Shown here piece by piece: positions 840 to 48,365 of a stretch of DNA of 64,000 nucleotides (positions are counted from its first letter, which is position 1; each line of letters opens with the position of its first letter). The DNA comes from Escherichia coli (lineage in GTDB: Bacteria > Pseudomonadota > Gammaproteobacteria > Enterobacterales > Enterobacteriaceae), in assembly GCF_044647545.1 (NCBI RefSeq), contig NZ_CP172818.1. One strand, 5' to 3'. A program made the position numbers and the translations under genes. A model generated the notes under the pieces. It did no database searches and was not told the origin of the DNA. It worked only from the letters and a program-made list of their open reading frames with translations.

Positions 840-3191
840 TCAAAATAGCCCAAGTTGCCCGGTCATAAGTGTAGCAAAATTATCCTCAATAAAAGGGAGT
901 ATTCCCTCCGCCACGGGTTGTAGCTGGCGGGTCAGATAGTGTTCGTAATCCAGCGGTGAACGTTGATAGTCCAGCGGCTCCGGGCCGTTGGTGGTCCATA
1001 CGTACTTAATGGTGCCGCGGTTCTGATATTGCAAGGGGCGACCGCGCTTTTGATTTTCTTCATCGGCAAGGCGAGCGGCGCGTACATGAGGCGGAACATT
1101 ACGCTGATATTCGCTCAGCGGACGGCGAAGGCGTTTTCGGTAAACCAGCCGCGCATCCAGTTCACCCGCCATCAGTTTGTCGATGGTTTCGCGGACGTAC
1201 TCCTGATATGGCTCGTTGCGGAAGATACGCAGGTACAGCTCCTGCTGAAACTGCTGGGCCAGCGGCGTCCAGTCGGTGCGCACGGTTTCCAGCCCTTTAA
1301 ACACCATCCGCTGTTTATCGCCCTCCTGAATCAGCCCGGCATAGCGCTTTTTGCTGCCCGTATCGGCTCCACGAATGGTTGGCATCAGAAAACGGCAGAA
1401 ATGGGTTTCATACTCCAGTTCCAGTGCGCTGGTCAGCCGTTGTTTTTGCAGCGTTTCCGCCCACCAGGCGTTAACGTGCTGCACCAGTGCACGACCAATT
1501 TTCGCCGCTTCTTCTTCCGAATGTGCGCCTTTCAACCAGACAAACGTTGAGTCGGTATCGCCGTAGATCACGTCGTAGCCCTGCGCTTCAATCAACGCTT
1601 TGGTTTGCCGCATGATCTGATGACCACGCATGGTGATCGACGACGCCAGGCGCGGATCGAAGAAGCGGCAGGCGGTGGTGCCAAGCACGCCATAAAAGGC
1701 ATTCATAATGATCTTCAGCGCCTGCGAAAGTGGCTTATTACCCTGACGTTTGGCTTCATCGCGCCCGTGCCAGATGTTAGTCACAATCTCTGGCAGGCAA
1801 TGTTTCTCCCGTGAGAACCAGGCATCGAGAAAACCTTCGGTGCTGTGCTCTGGATCAGGCTGCGCCATGCCTTCCACCAGCCCGACGGGATCAATCAGAA
1901 AGGTGCGGATGATCGACGGGTACAGGCTTTTGTAGTCCAGCACCAGCACCGAATCATAAAGTCCTGGCCGCGAATCCATCACATAGCCGCCAGGGCTGGC
2001 GTGTGGCGGCACTTCGCCGAGATTGGGCGCGACATAACCAGCGCGATGCATACGGGGAAAATAGAGATGACCAAACGCTGCCACCGAACCGCCGTGTCGA
2101 TCTACCGGCAGGCCGTTCACCGTCGCCCGTTCGAGCAAAAACGGCATGATTTCAGTTTTGTGGAAGATCTGCGTCACCAGCTCGCAATCTTTCAGGTTAT
2201 AAGTTGCCAGCGCAGGCTTATCTTCGGCGAAACGGCGGTCAATTTCGTCCATTCGATCCCACGGGTTATCGATAGATTTTCCTTCGCCTAATAACTCCTG
2301 AGCGACGGTTTCCAACGAGAATGAAGAGAAATTCCAGAACGCGGATTTCAGTGCCTCGATACCGTCGATAATTAGCCGACCTTTAACCTGAGCAAAAAAC
2401 ACACCGTTTTTAAAGCCGTGCTCGCGCCACTCCAGCTCGCTGTTATCACGCCCCAGACGCAGCGGAATACGGTAACGCTCGGCATGTTTTTGCAGCATTC
2501 GCAGATCAAACTGCACCACGTTCCAACCGATGATCACATCAGGATCGTAGTTGGCAAACCAGGCGTTAAGTTTTTCCAGTAGCTGCGGGCGGCTGGCGAC
2601 GTATTCCAGTTCGAAATCGAGCGCGGAGGCGTCGCCATTCTCTGGCCCCAGCATATAAACGATGCGCTGCCCGCAACCTTCCAGGCCGATGCAGTACAGC
2701 TCACCGTGGCGGGTGGTTTCAATATCAATAGAAACCCACTTGAGCGGCGGACGATAGTCGGGATGCGGTTTCAGACGGGCATTAACGATAGCGTCATTGC
2801 GTATATCACCCTCGACCCACACCGGTGAGGTGATAAACCGCTCCATCAGATAGCGTTCTGGCGGGCGCACATCGGCTTCGTAGACGGTAACGCCACCTTC
2901 ACGCAGGCGCTTTTCGTAATTCATCAACTGGCGATGGGCGCGACAGTAAAGGCCATACACCGGCTGGCGATGAAAATCCTTTAACGCCAGCGGCGTCAGG
3001 CGAAAGCCTTGCTCACCCTGCAAAATATGCTGGGCGCGGGGAACCTGATCGGCGGGAATAAACGCCACGGACTCTTGCGGCGCAAGCGTAACCTGCAACG
3101 GCCCGTTGTCCGTCGCTAACCAAAAGGAAACTTCGGTTCCTTGCGGGGTATCCCGCCAGTGTCGGGTTAAGATAAAACCTGCCTGCGCCAC
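840..3191 (-). CDS. polB: DNA polymerase II
   Basis: 783-aa [21 protein letters not shown]..., B-family polymerase; length and synteny as in E. coli. Confidence 0.95.
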
Positions 3192-3207
3192 GCTGAAAAT
3201 CCAATAA

Positions 3208-3237
3208 AAAACCAGGCTTGATTATAGCCTGGTTTCG
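3208..3237 (-). terminator. hairpin plus T-run after araD (araBAD terminator), upstream of polB
   Basis: Inverted repeat aaccaggct/agcctggtt followed by a T-run when read on the minus strand. Confidence 0.55.
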
Positions 3238-3265
3238 TTTGATTGGCTGTGGTTTTATACAGTCA

Positions 3266-3961
3266 TTACTGCCCGTAATATGCCTTCGCACCATGCTTAC
3301 GCAGATAGTGTTTATCCAGCAGCGTTTGCTGCATATCCGGTAACTGCGGCGCTAACTGACGGCAGAATATCCCCATATAAGCGACCTCTTCCAGCACGAT
3401 GGCGTTATGCACTGCATCTTCGGCATTTTTGCCCCATGCAAATGGGCCGTGAGAATGGACCAGGACGCCGGGCATTTGCGCCGCATCGATACCCTGTTTT
3501 TCGAAGGTTTCTACGATGACGTTACCGGTTTCCCACTCATATTCACCGTTGATTTCTGCGTCGGTCATTTTGCGGGTGCAGGGAATGGTGCCGTAGAAAT
3601 AGTCGGCGTGGGTGGTACCGGTTGCTGGAATCGACTGACCCGCCTGCGCCCAGATGGTGGCGTGGCGCGAGTGTGTGTGCACAATGCCGCCAATGGACGG
3701 GAATGCCTGATAGAGCAGCCGGTGAGTTGGCGTGTCGGAGGAGGGCTTTTTCGTACCTTCAACCACTTCACCGGTTTCGATACTGACCACGACCATATCG
3801 TCAGCGGTCATGATGCTGTAGTCGACGCCGGAAGGTTTGATCACCAGGACGCCGCGCCCGCGATCAACGGCGCTGACGTTACCCCAGGTGAGCGTGACCA
3901 GGTTGTGTTTTGGCAGCGCCAGGTTGGCTTCTAATACCTGGCGTTTGAGATCTTCTAACAT
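3266..3961 (-). CDS. araD: L-ribulose-5-phosphate 4-epimerase
   Basis: 231-aa ORF, class II aldolase-like; last gene of araBAD. Confidence 0.95.
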
Positions 3962-3974
3962 GTTGACTCCTTCG

Positions 3975-4138
3975 TGCCGGATGCGCTTTGCTTATCCGGC
4001 CTACAAAATCGCAGCGTGTAGGCCTGATAAACTCGAAAATTTATCGGTCAAAATGCATACCGCGCTCGCATCAGGCGGTGAATGCCGGATGCGCTTTGCT
4101 TATCCGGCCTACAAAATCGCAGCGTGTAGGCCTGATAA
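3975..4138. repeat. REP/BIME-type palindromic units in the araA–araD intergenic region, including a 56-bp perfect direct repeat
   Basis: tgccggatgcgctttgcttatccggcctacaaaatcgcagcgtgtaggcctgataa occurs at 3975..4030 and again at 4083..4138; the gccggatgcg...cgcatcaggc motifs are typical REP. Confidence 0.8.
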
Positions 4139-4183: not shown

Positions 4184-5686
4184 TTAGCGACGAAATCCGT
4201 AATACACTTCGTTCCAGCGCAGCGCGTCTTTAAACGCTGGCAGGCGGGTATCGTTATCAATCACTGTGATTTCAATGTCGTGCATCTCGGCGAACTGGCG
4301 CATATCGTTGAGGTTCAGCGCATGGCTGAAAACGGTATGGTGCGCGCCACCAGCGAGGATCCACGCTTCGGAAGCAGTTGGCAGATCCGGTTGCGCTTTC
4401 CACAGCGCATTCGCCACCGGCAGTTTCGGCAGGGAGTGCGGTGTTTTCACCGTGTCGATGCAGTTAACCAGCAGACGGTAACGATCGCCGAGATCAATCA
4501 AGCTGGCGACAATCGCTGGGCCGGTTTGGGTATTGAAGATCAGGCGGGCAGGATCGTCTTTACCGCCAATACCGAGGTGTTGAACGTCGAGGATCGGTTT
4601 CTCTTCTACGGCGATCGACGGACAGACTTCCAGCATATGGGAGCCGAGCACCAGGTCATTACCTTTTTCGAAGTGGTAAGTGTAGTCCTCCATAAAGGAG
4701 GTGCCGCCCTGCAGACCGGTTGACATCACCTTCATGATGCGAAGCAGGGCGGCAGTTTTCCAGTCGCCTTCGCCCGCAAAGCCGTAGCCCTGCTGCATCA
4801 GACGCTGTACGGCCAGACCAGGAAGCTGCTTCAGACCGTGCAAATCTTCAAAGGTGGTGGTGAACGCGTGGAAGCCACCTTGTTCCAGGAAACGCTTCAT
4901 CCCCAGCTCAATACGCGCCGCTTCCAGCACGTTCTGTCGTTTTTCGCCGTGGATTTGTGTCGCAGGCGTCATGGTGTAGCAGCTTTCGTACTCATCGACC
5001 AGCGCGTTAACATCGCCATCGCTGATGGAGTTCACTACCTGCACCAGATCGCCAACCGCCCAGGTATTGACGGAGAAACCGAACTTGATCTGTGCGGCAA
5101 CTTTATCGCCATCGGTGACCGCCACTTCACGCATGTTATCGCCAAAACGGCAGACTTTCAGATGACGGGTATCCTGTTTAGATACCGCCTGACGCATCCA
5201 GGAGCCGATACGCTCATGTGCTTGTTTATCCTGCCAGTGACCGGTAACGACGGCATGTTGCTGACGCATACGCGCGCCGATGAAGCCGAACTCGCGACCG
5301 CCATGCGCGGTCTGGTTCAGGTTCATAAAGTCCATGTCGATGCTGTCCCACGGCAGCGCCGCGTTGAACTGGGTGTGGAATTGCAGCAACGGTTTGTTGA
5401 GCATGGTCAGGCCGTTGATCCACATTTTGGCCGGGGAGAAGGTGTGCAGCCACACCACCAGACCAGCGCAACGATCGTCGTAATTCGCGTCACGGCAAAT
5501 AGCGGTGATTTCATCCGGCGTGGTGCCCAGCGGTTTCAGCACCAGTTTGCAGGGCAGTTTCGCTTCCGTATTCAGCGCATTAACGACGTGCTCGGCATGT
5601 TGGGTGACCTGACGCAGGGTTTCCGGGCCATACAGATGCTGGCTGCCAATTACAAACCACACTTCATAATTATCAAAAATCGTCAT
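4184..5686 (-). CDS. araA: L-arabinose isomerase
   Basis: 500-aa [23 protein letters not shown]... Confidence 0.95.
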
Positions 5687-7735: not shown

Positions 7736-8614
7736 ATGGCTGAAGCGCAAAATGATCCCCTGCTGCCGGGATACTCGTTTAACGCCCATCTGGTGGCGGG
7801 TTTAACGCCGATTGAGGCCAACGGTTATCTCGATTTTTTTATCGACCGACCACTGGGAATGAAGGGTTATATTCTCAATCTCACCATACGCGGCCAGGGG
7901 GTGGTGAAAAATCAGGGACGAGAATTTGTCTGCCGACCGGGTGATATTTTGCTGTTCCCGCCAGGAGAGATTCATCACTACGGTCGTCATCCGGAGGCTC
8001 GCGAATGGTATCACCAGTGGGTTTACTTTCGTCCGCGCGCCTACTGGCATGAATGGCTTAACTGGCCGTCAATATTTGCCAATACGGGTTTCTTTCGCCC
8101 GGATGAAGCGCACCAGCCGCATTTCAGCGACCTGTTTGGGCAAATCATTAACGCCGGGCAAGGGGAAGGGCGCTATTCGGAGCTGCTGGCGATAAATCTG
8201 CTTGAGCAATTGTTACTGCGGCGCATGGAAGCGATTAACGAGTCGCTCCATCCACCGATGGATAATCGGGTACGCGAGGCTTGTCAGTACATCAGCGATC
8301 ATCTCGCAGACAGCAATTTTGATATCGCCAGCGTCGCACAGCATGTTTGCTTGTCGCCGTCGCGTCTGTCACATCTTTTCCGCCAGCAGTTAGGGATTAG
8401 CGTCTTAAGCTGGCGCGAGGACCAACGCATTAGTCAGGCGAAGCTGCTTTTGAGCACCACCCGGATGCCTATCGCTACCGTCGGTCGCAATGTTGGTTTT
8501 GACGATCAACTCTATTTCTCGCGAGTATTTAAAAAATGCACCGGGGCCAGCCCAAGTGAATTCCGTGCCGGTTGTGAAGAAAAAGTGAATGATGTAGCCG
8601 TCAAGTTGTCATAA
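7736..8614 (+). CDS. araC: arabinose operon regulator AraC
   Basis: Track ORF 7685..8614; true start taken at [10 protein letters not shown] (292 aa); AraC/XylS HTH at C-terminus. Confidence 0.95.
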
Positions 8615-8699
8615 TTGGTAACGAATCAGACAATTGACGGCTTGACGGAGTAGCATAGGGTTTGCAGAATCCCTGCTTCGTCCATTTGACAGGCACATT

Positions 8700-9464
8700 A
8701 TGCAAGCATTGCTGGAACACTTTATTACCCAATCCACCGTGTATTCATTGATGGCGGTGGTGTTGGTGGCCTTTCTGGAGTCGCTGGCGCTGGTCGGTTT
8801 GATTTTACCCGGTACGGTGCTAATGGCGGGACTGGGGGCGCTGATTGGCAGTGGCGAGTTAAGTTTCGGGCACGCCTGGCTGGCAGGGATCGTCGGTTGC
8901 CTGCTGGGCGACTGGATCTCTTTCTGGCTGGGCTGGCGTTTTAAAAAGCCATTGCATCGCTGGTCATTTCTGAAGAAAAACAAAGCATTACTCGATAAAA
9001 CTGAACATGCGTTGCATCAACACAGCATGTTCACCATTCTGGTCGGTCGCTTTGTTGGCCCGACGCGTCCGCTGGTGCCAATGGTGGCGGGAATGCTGGA
9101 TCTCCCGGTGGCAAAATTTATTACGCCGAATATTATCGGCTGCCTGCTGTGGCCACCGTTTTACTTCCTGCCGGGGATTCTGGCGGGTGCGGCGATCGAT
9201 ATTCCTGCCGGGATGCAGAGTGGTGAGTTTAAATGGTTGCTGCTGGCGACGGCGGTATTTTTGTGGGTTGGGGGCTGGCTGTGCTGGCGGTTATGGCGCA
9301 GCGGTAAAGCGACTGACCGTTTGAGTCATTATTTGTCGCGCGGTCGTTTGTTGTGGCTGACGCCGTTGATTTCTGCCATCGGCGTGGTGGCGCTGGTGGT
9401 GTTAATTCGCCACCCGTTGATGCCGGTGTATATCGATATTTTGCGTAAAGTGGTTGGGGTTTAG
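8700..9464 (+). CDS. yabI: DedA-family inner membrane protein
   Basis: 254-aa hydrophobic ORF at the position of yabI between araC and thiQ. Confidence 0.85.
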   Translation: MQALLEHFITQSTVYSLMAVVLVAFLESLALVGLILPGTVLMAGLGALIGSGELSFGHAWLAGIVGCLLGDWISFWLGWRFKKPLHRWSFLKKNKALLDKTEHALHQHSMFTILVGRFVGPTRPLVPMVAGMLDLPVAKFITPNIIGCLLWPPFYFLPGILAGAAIDIPAGMQSGEFKWLLLATAVFLWVGGWLCWRLWRSGKATDRLSHYLSRGRLLWLTPLISAIGVVALVVLIRHPLMPVYIDILRKVVGV

Positions 9465-12797: not shown

Positions 12798-12842
12798 TTT
12801 GCACCTCAAAGAAGAGTGGCAAAGGACTTGAGAAGGAGCCTC

Positions 12843-12925
12843 AAATCCCTTCGCCGGCGTTATCCGGATCAGGTTCGACGGGTATTTTCTCAGCGCACGC
12901 GGCAGCGTGGCACCCCGTTGAGAAC
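12843..12925 (-). promoter_or_regulatory. TPP (thi-box) riboswitch in the thiBPQ leader
   Basis: Minus-strand reads ...ggggtgcc...gctgagaaaatacccgtcgaacctgatccggataacgccggcgaaggga, the conserved thi-element core, directly upstream of thiB. Confidence 0.85.
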
Positions 12926-13119
12926 GGCGTTAGTGTAGTGATTTTGTTATCAACCAGCAATCATAGAGAAGGCGTATTAAAAAAGCCAATATTCGTTCAG
13001 CTATCAAGGACGTATTTGCATAGCTGGGAAGCTTTGAACCGAAAGAATCCCTTAGCACAGTCAAAATCGGTAATGCAACCTTATTGCGTGAATGACGATT
13101 TTTGACATATTCTTTCAGG

Positions 13120-13712
<593 letters not shown>

Positions 13713-13713
13713 G

Positions 13714-15369
13714 CGATGGATCCGGCGGCGCAAACCACGCTGATTTAAAATCGAACCAGCCGAGGGTGTTCATACGTAGACCGCGCATACTGCGTTGCCC
13801 CTGAATGATCAGCCAGTGGTGGATAAGCGGCACCATTGCTTTGCTGGCGACCAGTTGCTGGCACCAGTTCGCCAGGTTCATTTCGCCATTGCGCCAGCGG
13901 GCGGCGTCGGCTTGCCAGTCGATGGGAAGACAGTGTTGGAGCAGCGGCACCTCGCACAAGTGCGCGAACAGCGAAAAATCCAGCGGCAGCGTAAAGTTGG
14001 CGCTGTTAAGCCAGATATCGCTCTCGATCTCTCCTTCATGCCACTGATCGTAGCTGATCTCTTTGATTTCCAGCGTGACCTGGTGACTTGCCAGAATCTG
14101 CTGCATGATCCCGGCAATCACTCGATGCTCAATATGATCCTGATAAAAGGTCAGGGTGAGGCTTTCCAGCCCGGCGGGTTTTTCGCAATGTGTCGGACGA
14201 GCATGGTGCCAACGGGGGAGCAGTCCATAAGCCGGGAACCACAGTTGCTGGTACTGTTCCTCAGCGAAATAGACCAGATTAGTTGGAGAAAGCACATAGC
14301 TTACCCAGTCCCTGACTTGCTGATTCGCCCCGCGATGGGTGCGGCTGTCGAACAGTAAATAGTAGCAACCTTCCTCCAGGCGGCTTTCAATCTCTTTTTC
14401 CTCGCCCTGTGGCCCTTTTAGCATCAGCCCTCCGGCTGGCTCGTCGGCAATTTCCGGCAGAACCCAGACGTTAACTTCGTCGATTAATGCCCGGTAACCG
14501 AAGAAGTCATCGAATGCCTGAATTTTCAGTTGATTGGTGCTGTTGCGGATCACCGCATACGGACCGGTGCCGATGGGATGGCTGGCAAAGTTACTGAGGG
14601 TTTCCCATTCGCGCGGCAGGATCATCGCCGGAACTTGCCCCAGCAGTAACGGCAACCAGCGATCCGGCTGCGTGAGGTGGATATCCAGCGTCCAGGGCGT
14701 CGGCGATACAATTTCAGCAATATGCGAATAGAGCGGCAGCGTATTGATCCGTTTTAAAGAGGCGATCACATCGTCCATTTCCAGTTCACGACCATGATGA
14801 AAATGGACTCCTGGACGCAAAAAGAAACGCCAGTGAAGCGGTGATATTTGCTGCCAGTGGTGGGCGATGTCTGCTTCCAGTTCCCCATTTTCCTCATTTA
14901 TGCGCGTTAGCGAACTGAAGATTTGCCGGGCGATATGGGTTTCGGAACGACGCAATGCACTGCCGGGCAGCAGATTACGCAACGGACGATAGTAGAGAAC
15001 GCGCAGGATGTGCCGCCCCTGGCGGAAGCTGCGTCCCAGATGAGAAACCAACATTTGCCGCACAGCCGCTTTGTCGCCAACCAGTTGCACCAGTTGATCG
15101 ATACGATCCTGCTCCAGCAGGTCTTCCGCCCGCTGTTGCTGAAGCGCCAGCCCGGTATAGAGGAATGTCAGACGCGAGCGTTTACCGCGCCCGACTTCCG
15201 CTTCCCACGTCAGCCAGCCGCGATCCTGCATGGTGTTGAGCAGGGTGCGCATATGACGACGCGAGCAACTCAGTAACGCTGCCAGTTCGTTGAGCGTGGT
15301 CTCCTGCGATTTACCCTCGCAGCATTGCCACAGGCGGATGAACTGTTGTTGCAGACGAGCAGATGGCAT
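13714..15369 (-). CDS. sgrR: sugar-phosphate stress transcriptional regulator SgrR; 3' end uncertain because the frame runs into the low-complexity tract
   Basis: Track ORF 13660..15390 (576 aa); start set at [15 protein letters not shown]; remembered length 551 aa would place the native stop near 13714, but here the frame continues ...[22 protein letters not shown] into homopolymer sequence. Confidence 0.8.
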
Positions 15370-15436: not shown

Positions 15437-15663
15437 GATGAAGCAAGGAGGTGCCCCATGCGTCAGTTTTATCAGCACTATTTTACCGCGACAGCGAAGT
15501 TGTGCTGGTTGCGTTGGTTAAGCGTCCCACAACGATTAACTATGCTGAAGAACTGATGCAGTGGGAGGGGAGTCATTCTGACTACTGATTTGCGGACATC
15601 ATGTGTGACTGAGTATTGGTGCTAATCGCCACGCCAGCAGTGATTATTGCTGGCTTTTTTCTT
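15437..15663 (+). ncRNA. sgrS: small RNA SgrS (glucose-phosphate stress)
   Basis: Starts gatgaagcaagg 67 bp from the divergent sgrR start; conserved seed gtgtgactgagtattggtg at 15602..15620; hairpin ccagcag/ctgctgg plus T-run at 15633..15663. Confidence 0.8.
15458..15556 (+). CDS. sgrT: small protein SgrT encoded within sgrS, 32 codons here
   Basis: ATG after ggagg RBS; MRQFYQHYFTATAKLCWLRWLSVPQRLTMLKN; shorter than the 43 aa I recall for K-12. Confidence 0.6.
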   Translation: MRQFYQHYFTATAKLCWLRWLSVPQRLTMLKN

Positions 15664-15687
15664 TGGCGATTGAGCCGACGGGACAAA

Positions 15688-17704
<2,017 letters not shown>

Positions 17705-47881: not shown

Positions 47882-48271
47882 ATGAAAAAGCTGCAAATTG
47901 CGGTAGGTATTATTCGCAACGAGAACAATGAAATCTTTATAACCCGTCGCGCAGCAGATGCGCACATGGCGAATAAACTGGAGTTTCCCGGCGGTAAAAT
48001 TGAAATGAGCGAAACGCCGGAACAGGCGGTGGTGCGTGAACTTCAGGAAGAGGTCGGGATTACCCCACAACATTTTTCGCTATTTGAAAAACTGGAATAT
48101 GAATTCCCGGACAGGCATATAACTCTGTGGTTCTGGCTGGTCGAAAGCTGGGAAGGGGAGCCGTGGGGTAAAGAAGGGCAACCCGGTGAGTGGATGTCGC
48201 TGGTCGGTCTGAATGCCGATGATTTTCCGCCAGCCAATGAACCGGTACTTGCGAAGCTTAAGCGTCTGTAG
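47882..48271 (+). CDS. mutT: 8-oxo-dGTP diphosphatase (Nudix)
   Basis: 129-aa ORF with Nudix box GGKIEMSETPEQAVVRELQEEVGI. Confidence 0.95.
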   Translation: MKKLQIAVGIIRNENNEIFITRRAADAHMANKLEFPGGKIEMSETPEQAVVRELQEEVGITPQHFSLFEKLEYEFPDRHITLWFWLVESWEGEPWGKEGQPGEWMSLVGLNADDFPPANEPVLAKLKRL

Positions 48272-48277
48272 GTCAGA

Positions 48278-48365
48278 TAAGACGTTTTCGCCGCATCCGA
48301 CATTCGCACACGATGCCTGATGCGACGCTCCGCCCGCGTCTTATCAGGCCAGCGTCGCATCAGAC
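48278..48365. repeat. REP palindromic unit(s) in the mutT–yacG intergenic region
   Basis: Inverted motifs gcctgatgcgacgct / agcgtcgcatcaga and ggtcagataagacg / cgtcttatcaggcc. Confidence 0.75.

Follow-up and report, generated by a model that had tools for sequence, protein, structure and literature searches.

A described counterpart of the locus considered here is the sgrS–setA operon of E. coli K-12, in which sgrR is divergent from sgrS, the 1,179-bp setA gene (77621-78799, plus strand) follows sgrS, and leuD is convergent downstream. Passages of PMC4509938 and PMC4021124, citing Sun and Vanderpool (2011), describe the expression of K-12 setA through read-through of the sgrS terminator, and the co-transcription of sgrS with setA, assumed in the preliminary description of this DNA, is documented in the former. 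In Horler and Vanderpool (2009; PMC2760817), setA is drawn in a synteny figure, the SgrS of K-12 is reported to be only 88% identical to those of CFT073 and O157, and an ATT in place of the sgrT start codon is described for O157:H7. González-Alba et al. (2019; PMC6896753) present SetA as specific to the A/B1 sublineage, where setA is called 'acquired'.

The present analysis concerns a stretch of 64,000 nucleotides (the window), whose locus is most like that of CFT073, O157:H7, 042 and IAI39. These strains share with it the arrangement (espY2)-sgrR-sgrS/sgrT-leuD without setA, and their junction sequence, sgrS allele and LeuD C-terminus match those of the window. The window departs from them in 8 single-base deletions affecting the terminator loop and the spacer, in a corrupted espY2 region, and in a frameshifted sgrT that is common only to ST648-like relatives. 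The CFT073 spacer in turn carries an IS200C transposase gene (2078-2536 of the extracted locus) that the window does not have, and the setA-less junction has therefore itself been a target for insertion, in a separate, later event. K-12 and the window agree in the divergent sgrR, the convergent leuD, and a conserved SgrS base-pairing region and Rho-independent terminator, whereas K-12 differs in possessing setA, in a LeuD that ends in MN* rather than MR*, in having no espY2, and in an sgrS 3' half that is only 74% identical. In the sgrR–sgrS–setA synteny of other Enterobacteriaceae (PMC2760817), among them Citrobacter, Salmonella, Enterobacter, Klebsiella and Kluyvera, the sgrR–sgrS pair and the sequences flanking setA also match the window, but setA is kept in every locus sampled.

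The sgrS–leuD junction of the window

In the window, setA is absent between sgrS (15437-15661, plus strand) and leuD (15688-16293, minus strand). BLASTN homology to K-12 stops at 15660 (K-12 77592, the end of sgrS) and resumes at 15694 (K-12 78854), and by these breakpoints 33 bp occupy the place of a setA-bearing stretch of 1,261 bp. This junction segment without a K-12 counterpart (15661-15693, no strand assigned) consists of the spacer at 15661-15687 together with the leuD stop and last codon; the leuD stop lies at most about 35 bp past the sgrS terminator, and the interval is free of ORFs, as is expected of the setA-less haplotype. TBLASTN with K-12 SetA as the query returned no SetA-like ORF in the 64-kb window, the best match having E = 0.5 over 35 aa. 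Together, the Rfam, BLASTN and TBLASTN results uphold the claims of the preliminary description that setA is missing here and that no SetA-like ORF occurs in the window, and the K-12 locus agrees with the order sgrS–setA–leuD that it had given. Its coordinates and its spacing of about 25 bp were also accurate; in all complete E. coli genomes searched the spacer is 8 bases longer. Aligned with other setA-less genomes, the junction is homologous throughout (…CTTTTTTCTTTTTGGCGATTGAG…CGGACGG.GTACAAACTAACGCAT…) and exact except for the 8 deleted bases. No IS element or remnant was found at the junction, whose 33 bp match the sequences that natively flank setA, and an IS-mediated deletion was rejected because the spacer holds no such remnant.

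The gene sgrR (13717-15369, minus strand), whose product activates transcription of sgrS, has an intact body and is 95% identical to K-12 sgrR by BLASTN. The SgrR translation agrees with that of E. coli FDAARGOS_497 through ...FAPPDP and is junk thereafter, and the ORF extends to 13660 because the last codons and the stop run into a degraded stretch described below. Rfam recovers sgrS at full length (RF00534, model positions 1-232, 212.4 bits against a threshold of 37). Its intrinsic terminator (15633-15664, plus strand), also found by a terminator scan, consists of a hairpin (15633-15654) and, directly after it, TTTTTTCTTT (15655-15664), with an RNA fold of -21.4 kcal/mol. A role for this terminator in ending the leu operon as well was considered and is not proposed: the hairpin also forms on the reverse strand, where no U-run follows it and the z-score is not significant. 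In the setA-less haplotype, AUCGCCA, located ahead of the terminator stem (15625-15631), is the complement of UGGCGAU, which comes right after the T-run (15664-15670); the predicted outer helix would surround the terminator and would be restricted to read-through transcripts, and the K-12 allele lacks it.

The leuD gene is intact, with a TAG stop at 15688-15690, and its product of 201 aa ends in ...PAFMR*, as is usual in Citrobacter and in Escherichia without setA, whereas that of K-12 ends in ...PAFMN*. Within sgrS, the sgrT frame (15458-15556, plus strand) is cut from the normal 43 aa to 32 aa by a 1-nt deletion (CTT GAA to CT- GAA), and its product ends in …TMLKN*. The identical frameshift is present in FDAARGOS_497, where sgrT is annotated as a pseudogene, and it therefore seems to be a real trait of the lineage. 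The O157-like strains inactivate sgrT another way, by a change of ATG to ATT.

Distribution of setA in Escherichia and other genera

E. coli FDAARGOS_497, IMT16316, MS6198, ECONIH1 and others, which are ST648-like strains of phylogroup F, share 99.9% identity with the window along 14 kb. Across 13717-64000 the window has zero mismatches to FDAARGOS_497, whose annotation reads espY2-sgrR-sgrT(pseudo)-leuD without setA; this was the one annotation inspected among the nearest relatives, the others being covered by a junction count. For that count, a 601-bp query across the sgrS–leuD junction was compared with 5,426 complete E. coli genomes. It matched contiguously in 2,159 of them and was split into two places in the rest. 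Full-length K-12 setA is carried by 3,239 complete genomes, and among the 3,241 that match it at all, 3,228 do so at 99% identity or more. The two classes are complementary, with 2,159 and 3,239 genomes against 5,399 that match the locus. In 2,182 setA-less records a sensitive blastn search found only the paralog setB (148 nt at 73% identity, 13% of the query), as exemplified by F690, which has the contiguous junction and only setB; no record among the complete E. coli genomes fell into the 80-95% identity band. The setA-less locus is a widespread presence/absence polymorphism, found in about 40% of E. coli, which the window has inherited and which has been described before.

Representative strains show the same split. 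The gene is absent from CFT073 (B2), in which IS200C is inserted in the spacer, from 042 (D), from IAI39 (F) and from the O157-like ERL06-2497 (E), in which the sgrT start is mutated to ATT, and it is present in K-12 (A) and IAI1 (B1); these phylogroups are the established ones for the strains. The presence of espY2 tracks the absence of setA in E. coli, the gene being found in the O157-like strain, 042, IAI39 and FDAARGOS_497 (at 533-1102, 4759-5328 and 8289-8858 in three extracted E. coli loci) and missing from K-12 and IAI1; the loci of E. albertii, Escherichia sp. E1V33 and Escherichia sp. MOD1-EC7003 have no espY2 either. Its site lies between the thiB leader (a TPP riboswitch, 12828-12927 of the window) and sgrR, so that, with the setA pattern, both flanks of sgrR differ between two E. 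coli haplogroups.

Beyond E. coli, a scan with SgrR of one genome per species returned 80 loci, 76 of them from non-Escherichia Enterobacteriaceae; E. fergusonii, E. marmotae, E. ruysiae, S. enterica subsp. enterica and E. coli had no representative among those returned. By TBLASTN, setA adjoins sgrR in all 76 (76/76), which include Citrobacter, Salmonella arizonae and diarizonae, Enterobacter, Klebsiella, Raoultella, Kluyvera, Leclercia, Buttiauxella, Atlantibacter and others, and it does so in Escherichia sp. MOD1-EC7003 too. It is absent from the locus in E. albertii, E. whittamii and Escherichia sp. E1V33, whose junctions equal that of the window base for base barring a few substitutions. 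The remark that this lineage lacks setA 'as some other enterics do' is not upheld by the 76 loci sampled outside Escherichia. Since these loci uniformly keep setA, setA beside sgrS is the ancestral enterobacterial state, and the junction common to the setA-less Escherichia probably goes back to one event within the genus.

Origin of the setA-less haplotype

The window very probably represents a non-A/B1 lineage of E. coli with an inherited setA-less haplotype that goes back to an old deletion within Escherichia. Both halves of the alternative offered in the preliminary description, a lineage that lacks setA or a clean deletion of it, appear in this light to have been essentially right. For this haplotype a single origin early in the history of Escherichia is most likely, through a deletion of about 1.2 kb that would have taken out the ribosome-binding site and ORF of setA, from about 10 nt beyond the T-run of the sgrS terminator to the setA stop codon, and would have left sgrS and leuD convergent, tail to tail. 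The left part of the spacer aligns to the outer flank of Citrobacter setA through CTTTTTTC(G/T)TTTTGGC, the right part aligns with Citrobacter from just past the setA stop (…TGCCGGA…) to the leuD stop, and LeuD ends in …FMR* in both, against …FMN* in K-12. These alignments, only a few tens of bases long at either endpoint, agree with a clean removal of the setA ORF together with its ribosome-binding site. The distribution of setA speaks against a single loss in its simplest form, as MOD1-EC7003 and E. coli A/B1 keep the gene and lineages between them lack it; a long-lived polymorphism or later recombination must therefore be invoked to reconcile the old deletion with the species tree.

One possibility, to which we give somewhat less than an even chance, is that the setA-less state is ancestral within E. 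coli and that A/B1(/C) regained setA by homologous recombination from another Escherichia lineage, the imported cassette running from mid-sgrS through setA. The window would then show the original E. coli arrangement and K-12 a derived one, a scenario that complements the old deletion and does not exclude it. It draws on the sgrS 3' half, a short comparison region of 117 nt, in which the window, CFT073, O157, E1V33, E. whittamii and E. albertii, from four Escherichia species, are 95-98% identical to one another (the window 96.6-98.3% to CFT073 and O157, against 74.4% to K-12), and the setA-less type is 82-86% identical to Citrobacter. The type found in K-12, IAI1 and MOD1-EC7003 is 99-100% identical internally, 74-79% identical to the setA-less type and only 70-72% identical to Citrobacter. 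Moreover, the tract that begins in mid-sgrS and closes with the end of setA is 98-99% identical between K-12 and MOD1-EC7003 (2400-3850 of the extracted K-12 locus, compared with the MOD1-EC7003 locus), against 84-95% in sgrR and leuDC on either side, a pattern that indicates the lateral exchange of a setA-bearing tract between species by homologous recombination. The near-uniformity of setA among its E. coli carriers (at least 99% identity in 3,228/3,241) and the term 'acquired' used for the AB1 sublineage in PMC6896753 point the same way.

Other observations temper the idea of a regained setA. The setA of K-12 is 77-80% identical at the nucleotide level to those of Citrobacter and Salmonella, and sgrR likewise is 77-80% identical; because the two genes are equally diverged, K-12 setA appears to be of Escherichia-level ancestry, an origin in Citrobacter or Salmonella was rejected, and a vertical Escherichia origin is equally possible. 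The exchange between K-12 and MOD1-EC7003 could have run in either direction, and the K-12-type terminator resembles that of Salmonella, which would fit a retained old allele. Tentatively, and with a probability a little below one half, the locus may be viewed as a cross-species Escherichia polymorphism of two old haplotypes, in which the setA cassette has moved by recombination and the K-12 arrangement represents a re-acquisition. One old haplotype would have setA deleted and a Citrobacter-like sgrS 3' end, and the other would have setA present and an sgrS 3' half about 25% divergent.

A recent, clean deletion of setA specific to the sampled organism is very improbable. The window junction does carry 8 private single-base deletions relative to all relatives, located at 15648-15683 in the terminator loop and spacer when compared with FDAARGOS_497; they occur in no complete E. 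coli genome searched, the best match being 98.7% identical with differences that are all gaps. However, the gap-free version of the junction occurs in the 2,159 contiguous matches among complete E. coli genomes, as well as in three further Escherichia species, and the sgrS 3' half and LeuD C-terminus of the window are of the old setA-less type.

That the missing gene is an artefact of assembly or sequencing is likewise highly improbable, although the window does hold damaged sequence 2 kb away. The region at 13129-13716 (no strand assigned) measures 588 bp, against 835 bp in relatives, where the sgrR stop codon and espY2, a gene for a T3SS effector, are located, and consists of A, G and C homopolymer runs of up to A30 and G17. 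By global alignment it is still colinear with the real sequence (score 291, against 180 ± 10.5 for shuffled and 54 for reversed sequence), and its degraded state seems to be technical in origin, from sequencing, assembly or synthesis, rather than biological. Single-base deletions relative to FDAARGOS_497 are more frequent from 12962 on, the differences from this nearest genome around the junction are all deletions, and the 8 at the junction are probably an artefact of the same kind. They are the only differences in the roughly 50 kb of 13717-64000, which has no substitution, besides a CC insertion at 48330; this insertion (48330-48331) falls inside a naRNA4/REP element (Rfam, 48271-48350). Elsewhere in the window, about 24 bases are extra relative to FDAARGOS_497 at 4031-4065, in the araD–araA intergenic repeat region. 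Eight missing bases cannot hide 1.26 kb, and high-quality complete genomes that otherwise match the window also have no setA at this junction; the deletions alter the length of the spacer, which is 25 bp instead of 33 bp, and not the conclusion on setA. Fine-scale features near 13129-13716 and the indels of the junction should accordingly not be over-read.

Relocation of setA to another part of the genome, a possibility raised in the preliminary description, has a negligible probability, since the complementary genome counts leave little room for it and the sensitive blastn search, with setB as the only match in setA-less genomes, excludes both relocation and a diverged second copy for this haplotype. 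For the source genome of the window, its near-identical relatives suggest that setA is missing outside the window as well.

Implications for the SgrS response

Intact SgrR, SgrS base-pairing region and terminator suggest that the regulatory-RNA side of the glucose-phosphate stress response has been preserved in the setA-less haplotype of the window. Judged from gene content, SgrR-dependent read-through expression of the efflux pump would be absent from such strains, with the paralog setB kept elsewhere in their genomes, and transcripts that escape the sgrS terminator would run antisense into leuD.

About 40% of complete E. coli genomes are without setA; the representatives checked from B2, D, E and F belong to this group, the uropathogenic CFT073 and an O157-like strain among them. 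As such strains lack setA and also differ in the sgrS 3' end, findings on the function of SetA or on read-through of sgrS are not transferable to them. The sgrS–setA operon of K-12, a model for sRNA terminator read-through and glucose-phosphate stress, is therefore not universal in E. coli.
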